From the NCBI GenBank assembly GCA_947259885.1, contig CAMYNW010000021.1, positions 8,836-72,835 of the forward strand: 64,000 bases of DNA, written 5' to 3'. The notes below the pieces were generated by a model, which saw only the letters and a list, made by a program, of their open reading frames with translations, was not told the origin of the DNA and did no database searches. Both the position numbers and the translations under genes were made by a program. Shown here piece by piece: positions 1 through 12,096 of the stretch. Positions within the stretch are counted from its first letter, which is position 1. Each line of letters starts with the position of its first letter. This DNA comes from an uncultured Gammaproteobacteria bacterium (GTDB lineage: Bacteria; Pseudomonadota; Gammaproteobacteria; Arenicellales; Poriferihabitantaceae).

Positions 1-306
1 CAGTACGACACTGTTCTCGTCGATCAAACGAAAATCGACATTTATTCGGGGGAAAAATGTGTTCATATTCTTTTGTTCAAAATAGTGCGCAGTTTCATAG
101 ACGAGCCTATATTGCGGGCTATTTTCTGTGTCAATTGTAAAAGTAAAGTTTTCAATACAGCCTTCCTGATCGGTGACGCTTTCAGTAAGGAGATGCCAAT
201 CGTGATCGATACGGTTTCGAACCATAAGTTTAACCGGAAGATTGTGTGCGGGTTCACCACTAGTTGCATCGAGAACAAATACTACTAATCTACCCTCGGC
301 ATTCAA
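1..306 (-). CDS. Transthyretin-like (5-hydroxyisourate hydrolase family) protein. The 3' end is cut by the window edge and the catalytic residues appear substituted.
   Basis: This frame is absent from the supplied ORF track (TTG at 306-304, no ATG). My translation is LNAEGRLVVFVLDATSGEPAHNLPVKLMVRNRIDHDWHLLTESVTDQEGCIENFTFTIDTENSPQYRLVYETAHYFEQKNMNTFFPRINVDFRLIDENSVVL. It follows the HIUase/transthyretin pattern (xHVLDxxxGxPA, TNxDGR, YF..FFPxVxVxF). The TTG overlaps the stop of the upstream gene (TTGA). Confidence 0.55.
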   Translation of the reverse strand, partial: MNAEGRLVVFVLDATSGEPAHNLPVKLMVRNRIDHDWHLLTESVTDQEGCIENFTFTIDTENSPQYRLVYETAHYFEQKNMNTFFPRINVDFRLIDENSVVL

Positions 307-1487
307 TTCTTAACGCCCTTATCATTGACCCAGCATCTGATCTGGCGCCTTTCTTGTGGCGTCATTCCGGTCTTGTTATCTGGGGGCATTGTTTGTGTGG
401 TCACGCTTCTTTCCAGTATTCTGCTTCGCAAGGAGATTACCTGTTTTGGAGTGTCAAAGACGACTCCGTTAGGAGGGTTCGAGAATGATGGATCGCTTGG
501 TGTGGAAGAGTGGCATGAAGTACATCTACGCGACACCGTATCGTAAATTTGACTTATATCTATTGTCGCTTCGCATTCTTCCAGTTGGACCAAACCAGGT
601 TTGGAAAAAAATACGATAGAGATAAACAATGAAACTGAAACAACGAGGGGTAGGACTCCGGATTTCCCCTGCTGTATTTTGGTATGAACATGTTTGGCAA
701 AGCCGGCAGCGAGCACCGCCACTGGCACAATAACCCAGCTGTAGGGATGACTGTGTACCACAGGCAAATGAATGCTCAGCATGATAAAGAAAACCGGAAG
801 CGTCATGTAATGGTTATGATCTGAGCGGACTCCAGGGTGCGATTTGTATAGTGCATCCAGCGGATGTTTGTTTTCAATGGCATGTAATAGTGACTTATGC
901 CAGGGGATAATGATGAAAAACACATTGGCGGACATAATTGTGCCCATGATTGCGCCGATGTGTAAAACCGCTGCACGGCCTGTAAATATTGAGGAAAGTA
1001 AAAACCCAAGTAACGTCACCGCTAATATTCCCAACCCAGCAGACAAAGGCAGGTTCTCAACCAGTCGAGTCTTGCAGTAGAGGTTGTATAGTAACCACGC
1101 GAATACTAAAAACACGAGGCTGATGACGATTCCTGCGCCCGTCGAAATCCCGGTCATAGCTGGCTTGATTAATGCATTGGAGGGCTGGGAATAGTAAAGA
1201 ATGCTCAGCAGAATGAATCCGGATACCCATGTCAGATAGGCTTCATATTTAAACCAATGCAGTTCGTCAGGTAGCGTCTCAGGTGCTTGCTTATGTTTTT
1301 CAACATAATAAAAGTCCCCACCTTGTATGGTCCAGAAATTTCCCTCTATTTCTTTTCTCAGAAAACTCTTGTTGAATTTATTTTCCCAGGAGAATATATA
1401 AAACGACGTCCCAATCCATACTGCGGCAATAATCACATGCAGCCATCGCATGATGAGTGCTAGCCACTCTAGTTCATAAACGCCCAT
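303..1487 (-). CDS. PuuD-like integral membrane protein with a C-terminal cytochrome c domain (urate hydroxylase family)
   Basis: 394-aa ORF. The multi-TM N-terminal domain carries family-typical strings: EWLALIMRWLHVIIAAVWIGTSFY, LHWFKYEAYLTWVSGF, GRAAVLHIGAIMGTIMSANVFFIIIP, HNHYMTLPVFFIM. The C-terminal soluble part has one CxxCH haem motif (CTSCH). Confidence 0.7.
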   Translation of the reverse strand: MGVYELEWLALIMRWLHVIIAAVWIGTSFYIFSWENKFNKSFLRKEIEGNFWTIQGGDFYYVEKHKQAPETLPDELHWFKYEAYLTWVSGFILLSILYYSQPSNALIKPAMTGISTGAGIVISLVFLVFAWLLYNLYCKTRLVENLPLSAGLGILAVTLLGFLLSSIFTGRAAVLHIGAIMGTIMSANVFFIIIPWHKSLLHAIENKHPLDALYKSHPGVRSDHNHYMTLPVFFIMLSIHLPVVHSHPYSWVIVPVAVLAAGFAKHVHTKIQQGKSGVLPLVVSVSLFISIVFFSKPGLVQLEECEATIDISQIYDTVSRRCTSCHSSTPSDPSFSNPPNGVVFDTPKQVISLRSRILERSVTTQTMPPDNKTGMTPQERRQIRCWVNDKGVKN

Positions 1488-1660
1488 GACTCATCCTTGA
1501 ATGATTTAAGGTTTGTAGTTGTTCATCTACGCTGAAGTTACCCAGTACTGGGGAATTGCTTTACGCCAAATTATTTTTTCACACCACCGATATAAATATT
1601 CTAGCATATCCAGGGGAATGCTTTGGAAGGATCAGATGTGAAGGGCGCAAAGTGGTCAGC

Positions 1661-1691
1661 GCGAAAAAAGGTACTGACTCCTTTTTCGCGA
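1661..1691 (-). terminator. Hairpin downstream of the repeat-protein gene (possible terminator)
   Basis: CGCGAAAAAAGG (1661-1672) pairs with CCTTTTTCGCG (1681-1691): about an 11-bp stem with one bulge and an 8-nt loop. It sits between the 3' end of the 1766..4861 gene and the puuD-like start. There is no clean U-tract after the stem. Confidence 0.3.
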
Positions 1692-1765
1692 TCTTGAACT
1701 CTCAGGAGTTTTTGTTTGAGTTGCTACTTCTGACGGGAAATAGTCTCCGTATATTGGTTTAACTA

Positions 1766-4700
1766 TCATACTAAGCCAAGTATCTCTTGGCCCTGTTTAA
1801 AGTATCTGGGATCAAAAATCCCTCGCTCTCCTCCCATTTTTTGCGCGGCTTCACGGAAGTCAGCGGCAGGATGTAGCGCAATGAAGGCGATATAATCACG
1901 AAAACTTTCTTCGTCCGCCGAAAAGATAGCAACGAGGATGCGGCGGTCTTCGGTAAACAGCTTAAATAATATATTCTCAGAACATTCAAAAAGTCGTGAC
2001 AGTGCTGGTGAGTCATTTAACAGCAGATTCCAGATCACATTACTATCGTAATTGACCAGAAGACGAAGCACGTCATCATTTTGTTTAAAGATTAATTGTA
2101 GTAACAAGGGATCAGATTCAAAAAGAGTTATAAGCACCGCATCCGTGTGAGCGAACAGGCTGCTCAATACGCCCTCACCATGGCTGAACAAGTTTTGTAA
2201 CACGCTGGACGGGGTAGAGAATATTGCATTGAATAGCAGAGGAGAACTTGAAAACACACTGCTTATTACAGAGTCTGGTGAAGCAAAAATAATATTCAGT
2301 GTTTTATCATCATGGGAAAAAAATGAGTGTAAAACAGAGGGGGGAAGTGATAGTAAATGCCAGGCGACATCGATATTGTGTTTCAGTAAATTTTCAAATA
2401 TCGTGGTCTCACGTTCGAATACCAGATCAATCATGTCAGGACGGATATCTACATACTTTCCGTAGTAGTGCACGAATGGCTGGCTTTGAAGTCCGAATGC
2501 CTCAATGGCGGCTCGGTCACGTCCGCTTAAAATTTCTGATGGCAAAATCGCATTTTCTTCTCCGGTGATCCGAGCCTGTAGCATCAATGCACGCACAACA
2601 CCCTCTATATCATCTAAGCTCTTATTAAGTGCATTTACTATTTCAGATAGTGCATTTGGTCCCCAGGAAAAAAAATCTTCAAGCAGCAGCTTGTCGCACT
2701 GAAACAGTTTTTCAAGTGCGTCAGGTGCACAGCTAAAAAGGAGCTCAAGAGATTGACCAGGATACGAGAACAGTTCCCACAACATTGTATTTGATGAAAG
2801 AAATAACTCCCGTAGGGTTTGTTCTGGTAACTGGAATATCAGAATTTGCACATCTGCATTGTGGGTAAACAGGTTTACTAAGACGGCGTCATGGCAATCA
2901 AACAGTCTGATTAGTACATGATCTGAATGCTGTAACATCTGATGCAGTGCTTCATCTGATGTGGAAAGCAGGCGACGTTGTGTATGCAGTGCAAGCCCAA
3001 AGAATGCTCGATGTACCAGCGGGTCATGCTGCACAAAAAGACAATGCAGTAATTGGTCTGGTTGCCAGAATAACTTACGCAATACATCATAAGGTAGTGA
3101 CAATACTTGAGCCAGTGTTGTGTTCGGCATATCAAAGAACTCTTGCAATACTGAATCAGAATGAGAAAAGATCAGATCCAGAAGATCAGCGTGTCCTGCT
3201 ACTTCGCGACGTATCGCATGCAATAAGATATTGGTTCCCTCAGAATCTCCTTTTGGCAATGGTGATTGATCAAGACGCAATCGATGAGCTGTTCCAGTTA
3301 TATTGGCACCTTCGCTACTCATCATGTTCCCTGCGGTCAGTTTTTCTGCCGGAGTGGTATAGAGCTGTGACAGGATTTGTTTGAACTCATCCTCGCCTCG
3401 TTCCAGAATGCTGTAAAGTCGATTATTGTCACAGGATATAAACAATGTAAGCGCCAAGCCGCCATCTTCTGGTGAGAAAATTTTTGACATCACTGATTCT
3501 GAGTGATTAAACAAATTCCATAACAAACTGTCTGAGAGAGAAAATAGCCAGTCCAACGTCTCTTCCTGCTGAACAAAAATGCGCTCAAGGACCAGATCGG
3601 AATGTGAGAAAATCTTTTCTATTGTAGTGTCATGATGATGAAAAACTTTAAGTAATAGCTTTTCCGAGCAAGAAAAGAGTTTTTCAGGAAGAAATCCAGA
3701 GCGTATAAATATTCGCTTGGTGACATATGACGGGTACATAAACATCCACCCCAGCAGGGTGTCACTCAAGGAAAAAAGATCTGTAAATACATCCTCATGA
3801 AGGCTAAATATTGCTGTTAGGGCATCAGGCGGTAAAGCCAGCATATCCGCCAAACTATCATCGTCAAGCACGTTGCATACTTGTTTGAGTCGATCCTGAC
3901 GTTGATACATATTTCTTATTAAAACATTATCAGTATTGGCTTTGAGTAGATAGTGAACCTTGAGCTGTTGCTGTTTTGTCGGCTCGGAAACTGATTGAAT
4001 TGATTCACGGATATTGAAAGGGATCGTGTTAGTTGCAGATGAAGGCGCATAATTATCCTCGCCCTCAAACATTGTGATTACGCTTCTTAACGATGTGGTT
4101 TCACCAGACCATGTTTCACTTTTATTTATCAGCATATTTAAAAAAATATTTAGCTCTTCAGTCTCTTTCGAAAACAACTTCTCTAGCACGTAATCATCTT
4201 GATTAAACAGTGCACTTAGTAACTCATCGGGTGAGCGAAAAAGATCGAGGAGAAACTTGTCTGGCTGTGAGAATAGATTGGTAAGATAAAAATTATCTGA
4301 ATGATTAAAGATCGACTGGATCACCTGACCATCATGAGAAAACAAATCAAACAGCGCTGTGTCAGAACCGCTGAATATTTTTTCGAACACCATGTCTGCA
4401 TGTCGAAATACTGAATCAAGCGTATCGCTTGAGTGAAATATTATTTGACGTAATAGCGTATCAGAATGGTCGAAAAAGCGATTTAGCGCAAAGTGCGATC
4501 GGCTAAACAGTGTTTCAATGACACGGGGCTCGCGTTGCAACAAACTGTCAAGAAAGGATTCAGAACACCAGAATACCTTACGTAATAAGTCCGGCGAGTG
4601 AGCAAAAAATCGATTTAATATCTTTTCATCAAGTGAAAACAAGGCTTCCAACACATTATCTGGATGGTTTGCGATAACATCAATTAATTGCGAGGTAGGA

Positions 4701-4861
4701 CGAGCGTATTTCCCGATAAAAGCAGTGAACACCCAGGAGCTGGACATGCGTTCATTGCTGCTTGGGACAGGAAACTGATTCATGTAATGCCGAAAACGAT
4801 CCAGCACAACGGGACGAACCAGACTCAGGTCATTGTTATTGTTGTCAAAACGCGTTGTCAT
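1766..4861 (-). CDS. 1031-aa protein made of four blocks of an 11-residue tandem repeat (consensus approximately S-x-[SD]-D-x-[LV]-L-x-x-[LI]-F). Function unknown.
   Basis: Long uninterrupted ORF with an ATG start. The repeats are visible in runs such as FFSHDDKTLNIIFASPDSVISSVFSSSPLLFNAIFSTPSSVLQNLFSHGEGVLSSLFAHTDAVLITLFESDPLLLQLIF, where the aromatic residue recurs every 11 residues. I see no signal peptide or TM segment. Confidence 0.8.
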   Translation of the reverse strand: MTTRFDNNNNDLSLVRPVVLDRFRHYMNQFPVPSSNERMSSSWVFTAFIGKYARPTSQLIDVIANHPDNVLEALFSLDEKILNRFFAHSPDLLRKVFWCSESFLDSLLQREPRVIETLFSRSHFALNRFFDHSDTLLRQIIFHSSDTLDSVFRHADMVFEKIFSGSDTALFDLFSHDGQVIQSIFNHSDNFYLTNLFSQPDKFLLDLFRSPDELLSALFNQDDYVLEKLFSKETEELNIFLNMLINKSETWSGETTSLRSVITMFEGEDNYAPSSATNTIPFNIRESIQSVSEPTKQQQLKVHYLLKANTDNVLIRNMYQRQDRLKQVCNVLDDDSLADMLALPPDALTAIFSLHEDVFTDLFSLSDTLLGWMFMYPSYVTKRIFIRSGFLPEKLFSCSEKLLLKVFHHHDTTIEKIFSHSDLVLERIFVQQEETLDWLFSLSDSLLWNLFNHSESVMSKIFSPEDGGLALTLFISCDNNRLYSILERGEDEFKQILSQLYTTPAEKLTAGNMMSSEGANITGTAHRLRLDQSPLPKGDSEGTNILLHAIRREVAGHADLLDLIFSHSDSVLQEFFDMPNTTLAQVLSLPYDVLRKLFWQPDQLLHCLFVQHDPLVHRAFFGLALHTQRRLLSTSDEALHQMLQHSDHVLIRLFDCHDAVLVNLFTHNADVQILIFQLPEQTLRELFLSSNTMLWELFSYPGQSLELLFSCAPDALEKLFQCDKLLLEDFFSWGPNALSEIVNALNKSLDDIEGVVRALMLQARITGEENAILPSEILSGRDRAAIEAFGLQSQPFVHYYGKYVDIRPDMIDLVFERETTIFENLLKHNIDVAWHLLSLPPSVLHSFFSHDDKTLNIIFASPDSVISSVFSSSPLLFNAIFSTPSSVLQNLFSHGEGVLSSLFAHTDAVLITLFESDPLLLQLIFKQNDDVLRLLVNYDSNVIWNLLLNDSPALSRLFECSENILFKLFTEDRRILVAIFSADEESFRDYIAFIALHPAADFREAAQKMGGERGIFDPRYFKQGQEILGLV

Positions 4862-5074
4862 AACAAAGTAAGCCTAAAGTTGATCAAGATCAAATACACT
4901 TTCTCTCGATTTGACAAATTAGGTGGCGAAGTTAAGTATTTTCTAATATACATTTAGTAAAACTTCGACAGGCAGTTATCAGAAAATTGCCAATCGAAAG
5001 TGACTATAAAATAGTATTGTGCTTAAAATTATTATAAGCAATTAGTTTAAAAAACTTCTTCAAATTATTGTAAG

Positions 5075-5099
5075 TGCAGGATGGTAAGTGATTCCTGCA
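5075..5099 (+). promoter_or_regulatory. Small hairpin in the 5' leader of the encapsulin gene
   Basis: TGCAGGA (5075-5081) and TCCTGCA (5093-5099) form a perfect 7-bp inverted repeat with an 11-nt loop. It lies about 30 nt upstream of the ATG at 5131. The SD GAGGAG is at 5119-5124. Confidence 0.25.
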
Positions 5100-5130
5100 A
5101 CCCTAACAACATAACCTTGAGGAGAAGTAC

Positions 5131-6108
5131 ATGGCTCAAAAACTCTTACCCAAGTCCAACGCGGTTGTACTTTCAAGTTCGCACAAGTCGCGCCCTTTTT
5201 GGGAAGGCCGTTCTCCACGATGGATCTGCCAAATGATGATGCAGCGCGCCTGCGTTCCGGTGACTGGTGGTATTTTTCGTTTAAACAAGGTAACTGAACC
5301 TTTTATCCCAATTCAGGTATCCGCAGGGTCGAACTTGATCAATCTTCCTGCCGAAAACCTGAATGTTATGCATTCGCACAATGAAAATACTACTTTATCA
5401 AATAGCTATGCTGCATATGATGAAGCACCGCGAGAAATTCATTTGCAACCTATTCAAACCGTCGTGAAGATGCATACCCGCATTCCAGCATTATATTCTA
5501 CCCATCATAATCAGCTCGAAATGCAGTTAAGTCTGTCTGCGGAATACATGTATGAGTCCAAGGAAAACCTGATCTACAATCATCCAGACTGGGGCTTGAT
5601 AAATAATGTTGCTCCGAAGTTGCAGATCAAAAGTGATGGTGGCCCAACTCCGGATTTACTTGACGACATGCTAAGCCGTGTCTGGAAGGTTCCTGATGTG
5701 TTTGCGATGCATCCAGAGGCTATTGCTTCGTTCAATCAGACTTGTAACAGTATGGGAATTAAGCTTGATACTCTCGAGTTTAATGGTGGTCATTTTGTAT
5801 GTTGGCGCGGTATTCCAATTTTACCGACCAATAAACTTTACCTGCATGATGGCGAAGGAAAGACTCTGCATGATCGTAATCCCGGCAAGTCAAAAACTGA
5901 CATATTGTTGTTACGCATGGGCGAGGACAAGCAGGGTGTTATCAGTCTGTATGCGGCGGGCACCGAAGGCAGTCCAAGATTTCCATTCATTACAGTTGAT
6001 TTCATGGGAATATCTGATGAATCGATCGCTTCCTATATAATGACAATGTACGTAGCGGTTGCTGTTCTGACGGCCGGTGCGCTTTGCAAGGCTGAGGTTG
6101 TCATTTAA
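5131..6108 (+). CDS. Family 2A encapsulin shell protein (SrpI-type, HK97-fold nanocompartment)
   Basis: 325 aa with a strong SD. Strings that match what I recall of SrpI-type shells: RSPRW, GIFRLNKV, VKMHTRIPALYS, WGLINNVAP, GGPTPDLLDDMLSRVWKVPDVFAMHPEAIASF, FVCWRGIPILPTNK, ILLLRMGEDKQGVISLY, VDFMGISDESIASYIMTMYVAVAVLT. There is no cNMP-binding insertion, hence 2A rather than 2B. Confidence 0.8.
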   Translation: MAQKLLPKSNAVVLSSSHKSRPFWEGRSPRWICQMMMQRACVPVTGGIFRLNKVTEPFIPIQVSAGSNLINLPAENLNVMHSHNENTTLSNSYAAYDEAPREIHLQPIQTVVKMHTRIPALYSTHHNQLEMQLSLSAEYMYESKENLIYNHPDWGLINNVAPKLQIKSDGGPTPDLLDDMLSRVWKVPDVFAMHPEAIASFNQTCNSMGIKLDTLEFNGGHFVCWRGIPILPTNKLYLHDGEGKTLHDRNPGKSKTDILLLRMGEDKQGVISLYAAGTEGSPRFPFITVDFMGISDESIASYIMTMYVAVAVLTAGALCKAEVVI

Positions 6109-6123
6109 GGTCCGGAGGTCCAT

Positions 6124-6966
6124 ATGAGTAATCCAACTACACCTGATGATGGATCGTATGCGAGCAACTCATTGACGTCTGGTGAGTATGTATATGCCCA
6201 TGCCGAGCCAGTAACTGGAGGATTCAGCTTGACGGAAGAGGGCGCAACTCCTGCATCATCGGGCCCTTCTACAGAGACAGACCCTGCCAATGAAGCCCAG
6301 GAAGAAGTACTTGAAACGGTAGATCCAGGATCTAAAGAGCACAGCGTGGCCGGTGGTGGAGAATCAATGGCTGAGGACTTGGGCACAATAGAGACCGAGG
6401 AAATTATGGATGAAATGGCGGTTGAAGCGTTTATCCCTTCTGTTCCAGCAGTTCCAGCTGACTTTGCCAGTTCGCCGTGGGCGGATCTGTCGTTTCTGGC
6501 AACGCCAGGACCGATGCCTATGCCCAGTCCAGAACTAGCTGAATCGACCCAACCACCACCGGCAGCTGCAGTATCACCAACAGCTGGATCGTCACCGGAT
6601 GTGCATCCGACTGAAATGCCGGAAACTCCTGTTACTACTGGCGTTTCCGAAATGGCAAGTGGTGAAGCGCAGGATGCACACAATCCAGCCGGTCCGGTTA
6701 ATGTCGAAATGCCCGCGCCTGCGGCAATTGAAACGCCACCGGCGCCGGTCAGCACGCCCCCGGCGCCAGCAGCGGCTGAACCGAATATAGCTGCTGGAGA
6801 GTTGCCTTCGGGCGCAGCCGCTCCAACTGGCGCTGCGGGAACGGCACCAGTAAATCTTGATTCACAAGACCCGGCGGCGATAGAGATGCAGATGCAAATG
6901 AGTGAAAATACTGCTCAGCACATGGCAAAAATTCTGCAGGATATTCTTCAAAGTGAATCACCTTGA
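6124..6966 (+). CDS. Acidic Pro/Ala/Glu/Thr/Ser-rich, predicted intrinsically disordered protein (280 aa) with a short helical-looking C-terminus
   Basis: GGAGG SD at 6114-6118, 5 nt before the ATG and 15 nt after the encapsulin stop. The composition is low-complexity (PAAIETPPAPVSTPPAPAAAEP...). The C-terminal segment AAIEMQMQMSENTAQHMAKILQDILQSESP is the only non-low-complexity part. The antisense 216-aa ORF is a GC-shadow. Confidence 0.7.
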   Translation: MSNPTTPDDGSYASNSLTSGEYVYAHAEPVTGGFSLTEEGATPASSGPSTETDPANEAQEEVLETVDPGSKEHSVAGGGESMAEDLGTIETEEIMDEMAVEAFIPSVPAVPADFASSPWADLSFLATPGPMPMPSPELAESTQPPPAAAVSPTAGSSPDVHPTEMPETPVTTGVSEMASGEAQDAHNPAGPVNVEMPAPAAIETPPAPVSTPPAPAAAEPNIAAGELPSGAAAPTGAAGTAPVNLDSQDPAAIEMQMQMSENTAQHMAKILQDILQSESP

Positions 6967-7095
6967 AACCAATAATCCAGATATGGGGGTTGATAGAATT
7001 AAGGAAGTTGATGGTTCTGTCTTAGGTGTAGTTTTAAACCTTAAAGGTGCTGGAAAATGGATACGACCATTACCAACTAGAGTGCGGTTTATTAA

Positions 7096-7554
7096 ATGAA
7101 TGACGCAATCGCCAGCGCTAATGGTCAAGTTGTGAGCAAGCTTGATCAGTCGGCCATGACAGTCAATCAGATATTCATCATTGGACTGCCAGTACTAGGG
7201 TTTATTTTTGACTCGCCGTGGCCGTTGATATTTACGGCGTCAGTTATGTTAATCGGACTTGTTATTCCGCAGCTTCGTTTGTTCAATCTTATCTATATGC
7301 ATGTGGTCAAGCCGCTCGGTTTACTGAAACCAAATGTCATTAAAGACGATCCGGCACCACATCGATTTGCGCATTTGTTAGGGGGCATATTTCTATTGAT
7401 CGCATGTGGCTTAATATTCCTCGATTACAGTGCATTAGGTTGGATATTCTGCTGGATCGTAGTTGGCCTCGCGCAATTGAATCTGCAGGCACATTTTTGT
7501 GTTGGTTGTTTCATGTATTTGCATTTAAGCAGGCTCATTTCAACCCGTAGCTGA
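7096..7554 (+). CDS. Small polytopic membrane protein, DUF4395-like
   Basis: 152 aa with about 4 hydrophobic segments and a C-terminal FCVGCFMY motif, as I recall for DUF4395. It lies 25 nt upstream of the Trx-TrxR fusion gene. Confidence 0.5.
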   Translation: MNDAIASANGQVVSKLDQSAMTVNQIFIIGLPVLGFIFDSPWPLIFTASVMLIGLVIPQLRLFNLIYMHVVKPLGLLKPNVIKDDPAPHRFAHLLGGIFLLIACGLIFLDYSALGWIFCWIVVGLAQLNLQAHFCVGCFMYLHLSRLISTRS

Positions 7555-7579
7555 CAAAAAATTACCATAAGGAAAGAAT

Positions 7580-9007
7580 ATGTTGTTCGATACGACACGA
7601 TTGTTGATTGCAATTGGTCTTCTGATTATCTTTACTACTGTAATTGGATTGTGGAACTGGGCGCATCTGCGAATTGTGCGCATACGCAGTCGTCATCGAA
7701 AGTGGCCGATGGAAGTTTGGAACGGTAAGGCAACCTTATTGTATTTCAGCACCAAGAATTGTGTCGTGTGTAAATATCAACAGGCCAAAGAGATTGAAAA
7801 AATACGCGAATTATTTTCGAAAGATTTGCTTGATATTAAAAAGCTTGATGCACTCGAACAACCAGAACTTGCGAAACTATTTGGCGTAATGAATGTCCCG
7901 ACCACCGTAATAATTGATGGTCAAGGTAATTTGCACGCATTTAACGCAAATCTGGCGAAGGTGAAGGAGCTCACGCAACAGATTAAGGGTAGCATTGGTG
8001 CGTGTGAGCCGGTGAGACAGAGCTCGATACTGGATCCGGATAAAACTGAAGAAGTAGTTATTGTGGGATCCGGTCCAGCAGGATGGACAGCTGCGATCTA
8101 TGCAGCAAGGGCTCAACTTGCACCATTGGTGTTTGTTGGCGTGGGTGACAAGTTCATGATTCCTGGTGGGCAATTAATGTGGACCACAGAAGTTGAAAAT
8201 TTTCCTGGTTGGCCTGAAGGAATCGAGGGGCCAGCGTTGATGGAGAAGCACCAGGAGCAGGCTATGCATTGGGGGGCGCGGGTTATGGAAACCGATATCG
8301 TTAATATCGATGCCAGTAAAAGGCCTTTCGAGCTTACCGACTCTGATGACAATCTAGTAAAAGCTCAGGCGGTCATAATCGCAACCGGAGCGCGTACTCG
8401 CTGGCTTGGCCTGGAAAACGAGGAGCGCCTGGCACGGAGTGGAGGCGGTGTATCTGCTTGCGCGACATGTGATGGACCAATGCCAATATTTCGTGATCAA
8501 GTAGTAGCGGTAATAGGCGGCGGTGATACTGCTCTTGAGGAAGCACTTCAACTCACAAACTTTGCCAGTCGGGTTCACATCATCAATATCACGCCAGAAC
8601 TTACTGCGAGTCAGGTAATGTGTGACCGCGCGCGCGATAATCAGAAAATTGAATTTCACTTCAACAAAACGGTTATTGATGTGATTGGTGAAGACAGAGT
8701 GGATGGATTGCGTATTCATGATGTCAGCGACAATACTGAATCAACTATGCCAGTGAAAGGATTGTTTGTGGCGATAGGGCATATTCCCAACACCGATTTT
8801 CTTAGGGATATCATGGAACTTGATGAGAATGGATATGTTGTCGTCAAGAAAGCGTTTAGGACCAATACAAGCGTGGATGGTATTTTTGCCGCAGGCGATG
8901 TTATAGACCCAAATTATCGCCAGGCAATAACATCTGCCGGTACTGGATGTATGGCGGCGATGGACGTTGAGCGTTGGTTACAACGTTCGCACGTCGCTTT
9001 GGTTTAA
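7580..9007 (+). CDS. Membrane-anchored thioredoxin-like domain fused to a low-Mr thioredoxin reductase
   Basis: 475 aa with an AAGGA SD. There is an N-terminal TM helix followed by a basic stretch (RIVRIRSRHRK). The Trx-fold segment has CVVC (7760-7771). The TrxB part has GSGPAGWTAAIYAAR (FAD), redox-active CATC (8459-8470), GGGDTALEEA, and the C-terminal GDV..YRQAITSAGTGCMAA. Confidence 0.85.
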   Translation: MLFDTTRLLIAIGLLIIFTTVIGLWNWAHLRIVRIRSRHRKWPMEVWNGKATLLYFSTKNCVVCKYQQAKEIEKIRELFSKDLLDIKKLDALEQPELAKLFGVMNVPTTVIIDGQGNLHAFNANLAKVKELTQQIKGSIGACEPVRQSSILDPDKTEEVVIVGSGPAGWTAAIYAARAQLAPLVFVGVGDKFMIPGGQLMWTTEVENFPGWPEGIEGPALMEKHQEQAMHWGARVMETDIVNIDASKRPFELTDSDDNLVKAQAVIIATGARTRWLGLENEERLARSGGGVSACATCDGPMPIFRDQVVAVIGGGDTALEEALQLTNFASRVHIINITPELTASQVMCDRARDNQKIEFHFNKTVIDVIGEDRVDGLRIHDVSDNTESTMPVKGLFVAIGHIPNTDFLRDIMELDENGYVVVKKAFRTNTSVDGIFAAGDVIDPNYRQAITSAGTGCMAAMDVERWLQRSHVALV

Positions 9008-9162
9008 CGGCTCACGGATAAGTCGGAACAAGGGTTTGGGGTCAAAGTAAAAACTCTTAGGATGAGATATGGAAATCTACTTCGAGGCCAAAGCATTAAT
9101 ATGCGGTTGATTTTGTGTTGAGCGGATGTCAGTGCGCTTCTTACTCTGACCCTTTTCCAGTG

Positions 9163-10287
9163 TTATGCCGCGGGCTGGTGCTGCGTCACGCAGTGGACTG
9201 CTCCGCCTTCGGCAGTGAGTGTAACCACCGGAATCGGGACGATTTCCCGATCTGGAAAACAATCGCCCAGAGTTTCGATTGACTGGCTATCTTGGGCGTT
9301 GCCAAATGCGGGCATCAACACGAGGTTGTTAGTGACTAAATAATTTAAATAGCTGGCGTCGGTAAAATGACTGCCAGCACCAAGTGCGGGATCGTGTCGG
9401 TCACCTATTGTAAATACACCGCCTTTGGGCAGGTTTAATGGAATTAATGTCAGTGGACTGCCGTCTTCATCGGTCGAACATTCCAGTTCCTCACGATGTT
9501 TGACAAGGTATGGGTAGCGAGGATCACTGTTGTCGTCTGTCCAGGCATATAGCACTTTATTTTTACCCACAAACCGCGCGGCAATATCGATGTGATAATC
9601 GGTGCCATCACCCAGTTCTTGTTCACAGACATCCGGCGGTGCACCGGATAGCCAGATAACATGATTTACGCCTAGGAATTCACTCAGCACTTTCTCAATA
9701 TCCATTTGATTCAATCCCGGATTTCGATTGTCATTGATGATGGAACTGCGTGTCGCCATCAGGCTGCCCGTTCCGTTGACCTCTATAGCGCCACCTTCAG
9801 ATACCAGGGGAGATACAAAAACCGGCAGATCTAAAATATCTGCGACGGTTTGAGGGATGTGTTTTTCCGCTTTGCCCCAATCCGAATACGAACCCCAACC
9901 ATTAAAATTCCAATCAGTGATCGCCAGGTTTCCCTGGCCATCGATGACAAAAATCGGGCCGGAATCACGATGCCATACATCAACGGTTTGCGTGACATAA
10001 ACGTAGATCTTGTCCATGTTGAAGCCGTAATAGTCCATCGCATCCAGAATATGCTTCCGGTGTACCTCACTCTGCGCCAGGATCTGCACGTCAACGTGCT
10101 GGTGGATTTCCCTAGACATGAGCAGCCAGGTCTTCTCCATCTTCATTTGATAGGAAAAATCCGTGCAATCGGTGGCTTTGGGGTATTTGCCAGGCCATTG
10201 CAGCCAAACTGCGGTTTGCGCCTCCCATTCCGCCGGCATTCGATAGCCGAGTTCTCTTGGCGTTGCGCTTTCGACAATGTTTGCCAT
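9163..10287 (-). CDS. aguA: Agmatine deiminase
   Basis: 374 aa. N-terminal YRMPAEWE..WLQWP, and C-terminal GGAVHCVTQHQP containing the catalytic Cys typical of agmatine deiminase. It starts 3 nt after the aguB stop. Confidence 0.9.
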   Translation of the reverse strand: MANIVESATPRELGYRMPAEWEAQTAVWLQWPGKYPKATDCTDFSYQMKMEKTWLLMSREIHQHVDVQILAQSEVHRKHILDAMDYYGFNMDKIYVYVTQTVDVWHRDSGPIFVIDGQGNLAITDWNFNGWGSYSDWGKAEKHIPQTVADILDLPVFVSPLVSEGGAIEVNGTGSLMATRSSIINDNRNPGLNQMDIEKVLSEFLGVNHVIWLSGAPPDVCEQELGDGTDYHIDIAARFVGKNKVLYAWTDDNSDPRYPYLVKHREELECSTDEDGSPLTLIPLNLPKGGVFTIGDRHDPALGAGSHFTDASYLNYLVTNNLVLMPAFGNAQDSQSIETLGDCFPDREIVPIPVVTLTAEGGAVHCVTQHQPAA

Positions 10288-10290
10288 GGT

Positions 10291-11181
10291 TTATCTGGTT
10301 TTGACCATAATATCGCCGTCCAGCGACATGATCGGACCGTAGTGCTCCGGCCGACGATCCCTGAACAAACACCAGCGATCTCGATGTTCTGCAATTGCAT
10401 CCAGATCGAATTGATGGGCCAAGACCATGGAATCATTGCGATTGGCTTCCGATACTTTTTGTCCTAAGTGATTACATATGAAGGAGGAACCGTAAAATGT
10501 GAGATGTTGATCTCCTTTGGAAGAGGATTCTGTTCCGATCCGGTTTGATGCCACTACCGGCATGATATTCGCGGCCGCATGACCCTGCATAACGGCTTGC
10601 CAGTGAGGTGCTGAGTCATGTTCTATTTCTAATTCTGAGCCTATTGCGGTGGGGTAAAGCAGTACTTCCGCGCCTAAGAGCGCCATACATCGGGCGGTTT
10701 CCGGAAACCATTGGTCCCAGCATATGCCCAATCCCACTTTACCGTAACGTGTATTCCATACCTTAAAGCCGGTATTGCCGGGAGAGAAATACTGTTTCTC
10801 CTGATAGCCGACATCGTTTGGAATATGCGTCTTGCGGTAGACGCCCAGAATCGTTCCGTCGGCATCAATCATCGCCACCGAGTTGAAATAAACTTTTCCC
10901 GCTCTCTCAAACCAGCTTACCGGCAGTACCATTTGCAGTTCCTCTGCAAGTTTTGAAAACCTCTGAATGGTTGGATTCGCATCTAATGTGCTTGCCAGCG
11001 TTAAATGTTTGGTATCCTGTTCAATGCAAAAATAGGGCGTTTCAAACAGTTCCTGAATAAGGGTGATTTGGGCACCCTGGGATGCGGCTTCACGCACAAG
11101 TTGCTCGGCTCGGTCCACATTGTCCTGAATGTTCCAGTCGCAATGCATTTGTGTGGCAGCAAGGGTTACCAGTCTAGTCAT
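10291..11181 (-). CDS. aguB: N-carbamoylputrescine amidase (CN-hydrolase family)
   Basis: 296 aa with nitrilase-superfamily strings: LIQELFETPYFC, YRKTHIP, GLGICWDQWFPE (catalytic Cys). Forms an operon with aguA. Confidence 0.9.
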   Translation of the reverse strand: MTRLVTLAATQMHCDWNIQDNVDRAEQLVREAASQGAQITLIQELFETPYFCIEQDTKHLTLASTLDANPTIQRFSKLAEELQMVLPVSWFERAGKVYFNSVAMIDADGTILGVYRKTHIPNDVGYQEKQYFSPGNTGFKVWNTRYGKVGLGICWDQWFPETARCMALLGAEVLLYPTAIGSELEIEHDSAPHWQAVMQGHAAANIMPVVASNRIGTESSSKGDQHLTFYGSSFICNHLGQKVSEANRNDSMVLAHQFDLDAIAEHRDRWCLFRDRRPEHYGPIMSLDGDIMVKTR

Positions 11182-11308
11182 AATGTCAATTCCGGTCAGA
11201 TATCGGCCAATTGAGCCTGGGTAATGATTGGATTATATAGAGCAGGTTTTGGGTCAGAGCAATAGTTATCAGTATATTTTGTGATCTGTGAAAGTCAGGG
11301 TGTTGCAT

Positions 11309-12096
11309 TCTGTCTCCCGTCTTATACACGCGACCTTCTGAATCAGGGACTTCAGGTAATTGATCCGCACCTACAAAGCTTCGCTCAGTCTCTTCGTCCC
11401 TATTCCAGTAACCGGGGCTAAGTCCAATACCAGCAATATACAGCTCTCCTTCAACACCTATAGGTGTGAGATAGCCCAGCGGGTCAAGAACCTAGTGTCG
11501 ATAGTTAGCTATTGGCTTACCGATTGGCGCTGATGTCATATGCTCAAGCAGGTCGACCGCAGTGGAAATAATCGTAGTTTCGGTGGGGCCATAGCTATTT
11601 AGCAGTCTGACTTTCCCTTTTGTCGCGGCATGCCAGAGTTTCAGATACTCTGACTTCACAGCTTCTCCGCTAATCATTAGGGTATGTACACTTGGCGCAA
11701 GTGGCTGCGCATCGAGTCGCTCCGTTAAAACGCTGAAAAATGCGGTAGGCAAACTAAGGCGCGAAATCTCCATGTCGATAATACGCTCGAGCAGCCTGTC
11801 CGGATCGATCATATCTTCAGTCCGCAGTACGAGCGTCGCGCCTGATCCCAGCGTCACAAAAATATCCTCTACGGAGAAGTCGAAGGCCAGGGATGCGAAT
11901 TGAAGATGCCGATCACTCGGTTGTATCCCGCTGACATCGCCAAAACCGTGGACGTAATTGGACAGGCTTTGATGTTTAATGGGTACACCTTTGGGTACCC
12001 CCGTACTCCCAGATGTATACATGATGTAAGCAAGCTGTTGTGGGTGAACCTCTACAGATGGATTCTGTGTTGAGCAAGAATCAATTATATCGCCTG
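11309..12096 (-). pseudogene. Relic of an NRPS/AMP-binding adenylation domain, truncated at both ends and carrying an internal in-frame TAG
   Basis: Core motifs appear in order: LAYIMYTSGSTGVPKG (A3), SAFDFSVEDIF, NSYGPTETT (A5), IGKPIANYRH-TAG(11492-11494)-VLDPLGYLTPIGVEGELYIAGIGLSPGYWNRDEETERSF (A6), RVYKTGDRM (A7). There is no start codon (upstream stop at 12097-12099), and similarity stops after TGD. Confidence 0.75.

Follow-up and report, generated by a model that had tools for sequence, protein, structure and literature searches.

A putative stand-alone shell-docking disordered protein encoded beside a Family 2A-like encapsulin shell

A 64,000-nucleotide (nt) stretch of contig CAMYNW010000021.1 (assembly GCA_947259885.1, positions 8,836 to 72,835), from an uncultured gammaproteobacterium of the Arenicellales and referred to here as the window, encodes an encapsulin shell protein followed directly by an acidic Pro/Ala-rich protein of 280 amino acids (aa). 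This locus raises the question of what a protein with no enzyme attached does in the position of an encapsulin cargo. The described Family 2 cargos (desulfurase, terpene cyclase, polyprenyl transferase and xylulose kinase) carry a disordered targeting region in cis (PMC8346489). The published cargo-loading domains (CLDs) of the desulfurases are disordered regions of about 225 aa, rich in Pro, Gly and Ser and poorly conserved save for the short motifs LARLANEFFS and AASPYYFLDG, which have been proposed to bind the shell interior at discontiguous sites (PMC10836720, PMC8049743). An earlier note on this DNA had suggested that a domain of this kind appears here as a separate gene. We propose that the 280-aa protein is a putative stand-alone shell-docking disordered protein, a functional analogue of a CLD made as a separate polypeptide. 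This reading is tentative; it is built on comparative sequence evidence, and we give it a probability of about 0.45.

The gene corresponds to the open reading frame (ORF) 6124..6966 (+), which begins with ATG and lies beside the shell gene, much as the earlier note had described. Its start codon follows the shell stop codon TAA (6106-6108) after 15 nt; the note had put the Shine-Dalgarno sequence at this distance, but that sequence begins 6 nt after the stop. The note had also reported a 216-aa ORF on the opposite strand, which does exist, and had left the coding strand to be confirmed. The plus-strand frame, with its start and stop, was kept in 24 of 24 homologues (41-84% identity, 231-337 aa), which come from beta- and gammaproteobacterial metagenome-assembled genomes (MAGs). 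Changes at codon positions 1/2/3 in close homologue pairs numbered 21/21/35, 41/29/73 and 41/22/70. The ratio of nonsynonymous to synonymous substitution rates (dN/dS) in the sense frame was 0.51, 0.36, 0.36 and 0.18 in four pairs, each time below the antisense value. The antisense frame, open for 216-263 codons, contained 1-7 stops in every homologue. Since the sense frame is open in the homologues, shows an excess of third-position changes and has the lower dN/dS, and since the antisense frame is interrupted by stops, these comparisons identify the plus strand as coding and the gene as real and conserved. By the same comparisons the antisense ORF is the shadow of a GCN/CCN-rich coding sequence, opposite which a frame tends to stay open. 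The high GC content to which the note had attributed this ORF was not found: GC at the locus is only 51-55% (about 40-45% in the flanks), and GC at third codon positions of the 280-aa gene is 0.40.

Two further observations concern the reading frame. In one frameshift-ridden contig (locus L095, 3752-4549) the public annotation of the homologous region runs against the strand of the shell gene: the ORF called there, of 265 aa, is apparently the antisense shadow, and some database entries for loci of this type may therefore be on the wrong strand. The shell and 280-aa genes share a reading frame in the window, where their starts are 993 nt apart, but in locus L001 the distance is 998 nt and the frames differ; stop-codon readthrough from the shell was rejected for this reason.

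The 280-aa protein is composed of 14.3% P, 16.1% A, 10.4% S, 10.7% E and 8.2% T, and has a net charge of -41, two Lys or Arg residues and no Cys. Across the family (alignment A1, 24 rows) net charge ranged from -16 to -49, with 4% Met, almost no Lys or Arg and, again, no Cys. Where the earlier note had seen about 240 aa of low complexity, the alignment resolved three conserved modules and one hypervariable acidic linker (Table 1), the linker being about half as long in most homologues. The Pro-rich core is 144 aa long, has 21 of its 30 prolines invariant and includes the conserved strings SPWADLSFL, SSPDVHPTEMP, IETPPAPV and EPN.A.G.LP; judged by this alignment, its conservation exceeds the need of a free linker. 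The LSFL motif within the core is single, and was duplicated only in homologue P0006.

AlphaFold2 prediction with A1 gave a mean predicted local distance difference test score (pLDDT) of 50.9 and a predicted template modelling score of 0.17, with 157 of 280 residues below pLDDT 50. This agrees with the disorder that the earlier note had expected, pLDDT being a mere proxy for disorder here because the alignment is shallow. The only confident part was a helix at aa 250-277 (pLDDT 79-86), on which the hydrophobic residues M267, I270, L271, I274 and L275 share one face and which is net acidic; the segment that had looked amphipathic to the note is therefore borne out by the model. Although predicted to be mostly disordered, the protein is clearly constrained in three of its four parts. 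Neither Pfam nor NCBIfam identified a domain in it, and A1 matched no PDB sequence at E values up to 10. When 1.84 billion representatives were searched with the A1 profile, the matches were limited to its own family, one fragment and three multi-stretch low-complexity sequences, with no enzyme-fused or longer relative, consistent with a separate gene without an enzyme.

The shell itself is unusual. It scored 263 bits against the NCBIfam model encap_f2a (cut-off 380) and 243 bits against encap_f2b (cut-off 400) and would therefore probably receive no name in automatic annotation, and Pfam found no PF00027 cNMP-binding domain in it. Its best PDB matches were 8t6r and 6x8m, at about 36% identity. 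Relative to the solved Family 2A shells it carries two clade-specific insertions, aa 57-73 and aa 241-253, the first of which coincides with the E-loop position of the cNMP-binding domain in Family 2B shells. Shells of a wider clade were 46-70% identical to the window shell; a gap follows, and canonical 2A shells reached 37% at most. On these sequence grounds, the window shell belongs to a distinct, previously undescribed branch of Family 2A-like encapsulins. Three contigs of one environmental metatranscriptome covered 4995-5676 at ≥99% identity, reaching from ahead of the shell start to roughly its 180th codon; as they cover its 5' part, the shell gene is transcribed in the environment. At 4987-5029 lies a sigma-70-like site. 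A promoter and terminator scan gave signal at background level, and there were no Rfam matches in 1-12000.

In the close clade (shells of 82-100% identity) the same cassette was present wherever the contig was long enough: a repeat protein of ~1030-1075 aa on the opposite strand, the shell, the disordered protein, a DUF4395 membrane protein and a fusion of thioredoxin (Trx) and thioredoxin reductase (TrxR) with a transmembrane (TM) helix. The outer flanks differed, with toxin-antitoxin genes in L001, phosphoenolpyruvate carboxylase and DUF302 in locus L004, and Urate_ox_N and an agmatine-deiminase-type gene in the window. This shell was found in 6 of 185,579 species genomes, all of them MAGs, and its hosts are Thiobacillus, Sulfuricellaceae, Sulfuricaulis and other Beta- and Gammaproteobacteria. 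The repeat protein is transcribed divergently from the shell gene and was present in all loci of the close clade that reach far enough. Its autocorrelation peaks at 11, 22, 33 and 44, and it falls into four blocks. Homologues of the repeat protein formed 8 clusters in 5.8 billion proteins, all of 966-1082 aa, and the shell gene stood beside the repeat gene in both of the long contigs checked. The idea that the repeat protein strings together LARLANEFFS-like motifs was discarded, with 0 matches at ≥8 bits. The Trx-TrxR fusion, which matches Thioredoxin at aa 41-135, begins with a hydrophobic segment (aa 8-27) followed by the basic sequence RIVRIRSRHRK; since it starts with a TM helix, it is unlikely to be the partner recruited by the 280-aa protein, a possibility that the earlier note had raised. 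The DUF4395 protein is polytopic, and its gene is kept after that of the disordered protein in the 52-100% clades.

Every wider-clade locus with sequence past the shell contained a stand-alone ORF, 113-260 aa long and unmatched in Pfam, so the free disordered protein accompanied this shell clade in every locus examined, the co-occurrence with encapsulin loci that the earlier note's idea implied. In the related loci the downstream ORF starts -59 to +35 nt from the shell stop, the negative offsets being probably over-extended start calls. These small proteins could not be aligned between subclades: the one from locus L025 (70% shell) matched the A1 profile at E 4e-10, and the others gave E >0.1. 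They nevertheless share an L-x-F-L motif, in the form of LSFL, LAFL, LGFL, LDFL or FSFL. The strict form L[SAGD]FL was present in 13 of 15 wider-clade lineages, against an estimated ~0.017 expected by chance in a random protein of 200 aa. Of the 15 position-equivalent proteins, 14 had a helix-like C-terminal segment that is hydrophobic or amphipathic, that of locus L028 ending differently. The small proteins carry one of three N-terminal motif types, of which SGEYxYGF was seen solely in the subclade with the repeat protein, a weak hint from phylogenetic profile that the two are connected.

The shell is the only constant neighbour of these proteins in the wider clade, and the accessory genes vary with the subclade. 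At L025, genes for DUF4395, Trx and TrxR follow the disordered protein and no repeat protein lies upstream. In the 52-57% subclade DUF4395 and Trx follow it, with DsrE or FdhD upstream in some loci. Locus L041 (52%) contains a DUF4395-hemerythrin fusion (5983-7170, +), DUF4395, Trx and a divergent SufS-like aminotransferase (8129-9565, +) that has no long N-terminal domain (NTD), its N-terminal extension being only ~54 aa; in this operon a desulfurase and a disordered protein are therefore encoded separately. In the 46-48% subclade, from soil metagenomes, SelD (selenide, water dikinase) follows the small LSFL protein, and SQR-like and DsrE-like genes are nearby. At locus L047 SelD lies at 6175-7182 (+) and scored 338 bits against TIGR00476 (cut-off 125); the arrangement is repeated in L045 and L049-L052, and the type III SQR-like flavoprotein and the DsrE-like gene of this subclade are on the opposite strand. 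The SelD neighbourhood hints at a selenium link of this encapsulin clade. Loci L028 and L038 (P0038) encode a 54%-identical shell and a 204-aa LSFL protein with no DUF4395 or Trx nearby on the contig; they bear the NCBI label Candidatus Heimdallarchaeota archaeon, which may reflect mis-binning or a wider host range.

We compared the family with canonical desulfurase loci, in which a desulfurase catalytic domain followed 22 of 25 shells (those with ≥1.5 kb downstream). The space before this domain was 15-260 aa, and ≥69 aa in all but one locus. Eight canonical cysteine desulfurase (CyD) NTDs were extracted for comparison. Like the desulfurase CLD, the 280-aa protein is encoded straight after a Family 2A-type shell gene; its family members are 230-340 aa long, rich in P, A, G and S and predicted to be disordered, with short conserved motifs split by variable linkers and a hydrophobic x-F-L motif that recalls SPYYFLDG. 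Pro makes up 14-17% and Ala 15-16% of the family, against 14.5% and 15.7% of the pooled CyD NTDs. The resemblance in length and composition is thus real. Unlike the desulfurase CLD, the 280-aa protein forms a polypeptide of its own that lacks a desulfurase or any other enzyme domain, its family has a long gapless conserved core and a terminal amphipathic helix, and its shell stands in the distinct clade, with two insertions, described above.

Several results weigh against shell docking in the manner of a CLD. Comparison of A1 with an alignment of seven CyD NTDs (A2) by hhalign gave E 0.51, which is not significant; the sole local alignment proposed paired SPWADLSFL with SPxYFL. Position-specific scoring matrices for LARLANEFFS and SPYYFLD (8 and 10 instances) gave shuffle p values of 0.07-0.82 on the family. 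In the reverse test, the top match of an LSFL matrix was YYFL[DG] in four of seven long NTDs, with p only 0.04-0.8. Because neither hhalign nor the motif matrices gave significant matches, homology to canonical CLDs is not shown, and the sequence or motif similarity that the note had suggested looking for did not emerge; a hydrophobic x-F-L docking motif common to the family and the CLDs remains a lead, suggested by the sequences. The family is also far more acidic than the desulfurase CLDs, as well as Met-richer. A fused-chain AlphaFold2 run (shell, linker and 280-aa protein; unpaired multiple sequence alignment of 53 rows) brought no gain in confidence in the disordered part, with pLDDT >90 for the shell, 36-49 for the core and 68-80 for the C-terminal helix; this is a weak negative because the run contained one shell monomer only and gave no contacts or predicted aligned error. 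At L025 a homologous disordered protein occurs with no adjacent repeat protein. Finally, the 280-aa gene was seen in none of the RNA runs searched, the metatranscriptome containing only the 5' part of the shell gene. Separately, the segment MAKILQDILQ of the C-terminal helix had been aligned by eye, without gaps, with LARLANEFFS; this match failed the shuffle test and was set aside as a generic amphipathic pattern.

If the protein does dock to the shell, LSFL and the Pro-rich core would lie as an extended thread on conserved luminal patches of the shell, in a discontiguous, multi-site mode of binding like that proposed for the desulfurase CLD. The acidic linker would act as a spacer, and the N-terminal motif, the C-terminal helix or both would remain available for a client, which in this subclade would most plausibly be the 1031-aa 11-mer repeat protein, a candidate because it is the only other soluble product of the cassette, DUF4395 being polytopic and Trx-TrxR TM-anchored. 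Such a client cannot be general, because L025 has no repeat protein adjacent. The accessory genes are all of the kind that handles sulfur or selenium (DUF4395 with membrane Trx or Trx-TrxR, DsrE, FdhD, SelD). By analogy with the desulfurase encapsulins, which store elemental sulfur (PMC10836720), this points to a compartment that handles reactive sulfur or selenium species. In its fullest form the proposal would make the 280-aa protein the first trans-acting encapsulin cargo-loading adaptor, threaded along the wall by LSFL and the core while its free N-terminal motif or C-terminal helix captures the untagged 118-kDa repeat protein, within a new sulfur- or selenium-handling class of Family 2A-like encapsulins that works alongside a membrane DUF4395/thioredoxin relay or SelD. 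We consider this complete version rather doubtful.

Other roles can be envisaged for the protein inside or outside the shell. It could itself be the main content of the lumen, a wall-anchored, polyanionic, Met- and Pro-rich brush that sets the environment for sequestering sulfur, selenium or metal species. No enzyme cargo directly follows the shell in any locus of the new clade, the close gene spacing suggests amounts comparable to those of the shell, and the strong negative charge, 4% Met and near lack of Lys and Arg across the family would suit such a brush, as would neighbours of the DsrE, FdhD, SelD and Trx kinds and the elemental sulfur stored by desulfurase encapsulins (PMC10836720). However, the acidic excess lies mainly in the hypervariable linker, which is nearly neutral (dN/dS 0.73) and about half as long in most homologues; 60 copies of a 28-kDa chain would take up more than half of a T=1 lumen, by an estimate that assumes an SrpI-like size; and the family cannot itself carry persulfide, because it has no Cys. 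We therefore hold this role to be unlikely. A position outside the shell, as a tether to membrane DUF4395 and TM-Trx(-TrxR) along which reducing equivalents or sulfur or selenium species would be passed, seems improbable. It would fit the presence of DUF4395 and membrane-anchored thioredoxin after the gene in all 52-100% clade loci, the outward-facing N-terminus of Family 2 shells (PMC8346489) and the placement of the first shell insertion at the E-loop site of the Family 2B cNMP-binding domain. The 46-48% subclade, however, keeps the disordered protein without DUF4395 or Trx and has SelD instead, which leaves the shell as the only constant partner, and the net acidic C-terminal helix is unlike typical membrane-targeting amphipathic helices.

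A role in shell assembly, as a scaffold or chaperone resembling phage scaffolding proteins and lost after assembly, is suggested by the HK97-type fold of the shell and by the position of the gene directly after it with a short gap. P22-type scaffolding proteins, too, bind coat protein via a C-terminal helical element. Yet known scaffolding proteins are helical, not Pro-rich, and a conserved, gapless 144-aa Pro-rich core would be unexpected in one. Characterised encapsulins, including the Family 2A SrpI, assemble scaffold-free (PMC8049743), and we regard such a role as very improbable. The earlier note had also allowed for the remnant of a split cargo gene, and one might equally suppose that the antisense ORF is the real gene or that the region is non-coding. 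The 280-aa gene does occupy the position of a cargo gene, its product is CLD-like in composition, the antisense frame is open over a long distance, and the antisense strand was called in the frameshift-ridden contig. Against this, purifying selection acts on the three modules (dN/dS 0.20-0.25), all 24 beta- and gammaproteobacterial homologues preserve the frame, the antisense frame is interrupted by stops in each of them and has the higher dN/dS, and stand-alone proteins follow the shell throughout the 46-100% clade. A decaying desulfurase remnant fails on the purifying selection and the stand-alone state, and this group of explanations is largely refuted.

Comparison with other shell systems offers partial parallels to a stand-alone docking protein. 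CsoS2, the 'molecular thread' of the alpha-carboxysome, is likewise a disordered protein in its own right whose gene accompanies a protein shell, and it probably touches the inside of the shell at several discontiguous sites. It is a basic protein made up of repeated motifs. Unlike CsoS2, which also binds Rubisco, the 280-aa protein is acidic (-41), is essentially non-repetitive with a single LSFL, and goes with an HK97-fold encapsulin, not a bacterial microcompartment (BMC) shell. Its terminal amphipathic helix of ~25 residues on a flexible segment resembles the encapsulation peptides of BMCs; those are found on enzymes, whereas the helix here ends an enzyme-free protein beside an encapsulin.

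Table 1. Coordinates of the features of the encapsulin locus in the window
Feature	Coordinates	Strand	Support
N-terminal conserved motif MSNPxxP...L.SGEY.Y, aa 1-35	6124..6228	+	43% identity to distant homologues, no gaps, dN/dS 0.21
Hypervariable acidic linker, aa 36-105	6229..6438	+	8% identity, 50% gaps, dN/dS 0.73, pLDDT 33-47
Pro-rich core, aa 106-249	6439..6870	+	58% identity to distant homologues, 1% gaps, dN/dS 0.25
C-terminal amphipathic helix module, aa 250-280	6871..6963	+	53% identity, no gaps, dN/dS 0.20
L-S-F-L short linear motif, aa 122-125, within SSPWADLSFLATPG	6487..6498	+	Invariant in A1
Shine-Dalgarno GGAGG	6114..6118	+	5 nt upstream of ATG 6124; read from sequence
Antisense shadow ORF, 216 aa, GTG start, not a gene	6105..6755	-	Stops in homologues, higher dN/dS
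Family 2A-like (SrpI-like) encapsulin shell, 325 aa	5131..6108	+	Pfam PF19307 E 9.5e-62
DUF4395 membrane protein, C-terminal CVGC motif	7096..7554	+	Pfam PF14340 E 3e-27
Trx/thioredoxin-reductase fusion, N-terminal TM helix	7580..9007	+	TIGR01292 357 bits, cut-off 343
Repeat protein, 1031 aa, ~65 units of 11-residue repeat SHSDxxLxxLF	1766..4861	-	No Pfam match

Two other genes in the window were noted in passing. The Urate_ox_N (PF06181) membrane protein at 303..1487 (-), outside the conserved cassette, has a C-terminal CxxCH motif (CTSCHS), which suggests a fused c-type haem-binding site. A 176-aa ORF at 11492..12022 (-) starts with an adenylation-domain core motif (YTSGSTGVPKGV) and looks like a truncated fragment of a non-ribosomal peptide synthetase or acyl-AMP ligase.

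In the literature searched, no paper links encapsulins with DUF4395, thioredoxin, thioredoxin reductase, DsrE, FdhD or SelD. What is new here is probably that a distinct shell clade is combined with a disordered partner encoded separately at the place of the cargo, and an enzyme-free docking partner is probably unreported for encapsulins. Whereas the described Family 2 cargos carry their disordered regions in cis, here the place of the cargo is taken, across an entire shell clade, by a free disordered protein. If the proposed binding to the shell is true, the loading of encapsulins can be handed over to a distinct adaptor or matrix protein, and LSFL with the Pro-rich core would constitute a compact handle for engineered cargo loading. 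It would also point to a type of compartment in sulfur-oxidising bacteria that is tied to thioredoxin, DsrE, FdhD and SelD chemistry.

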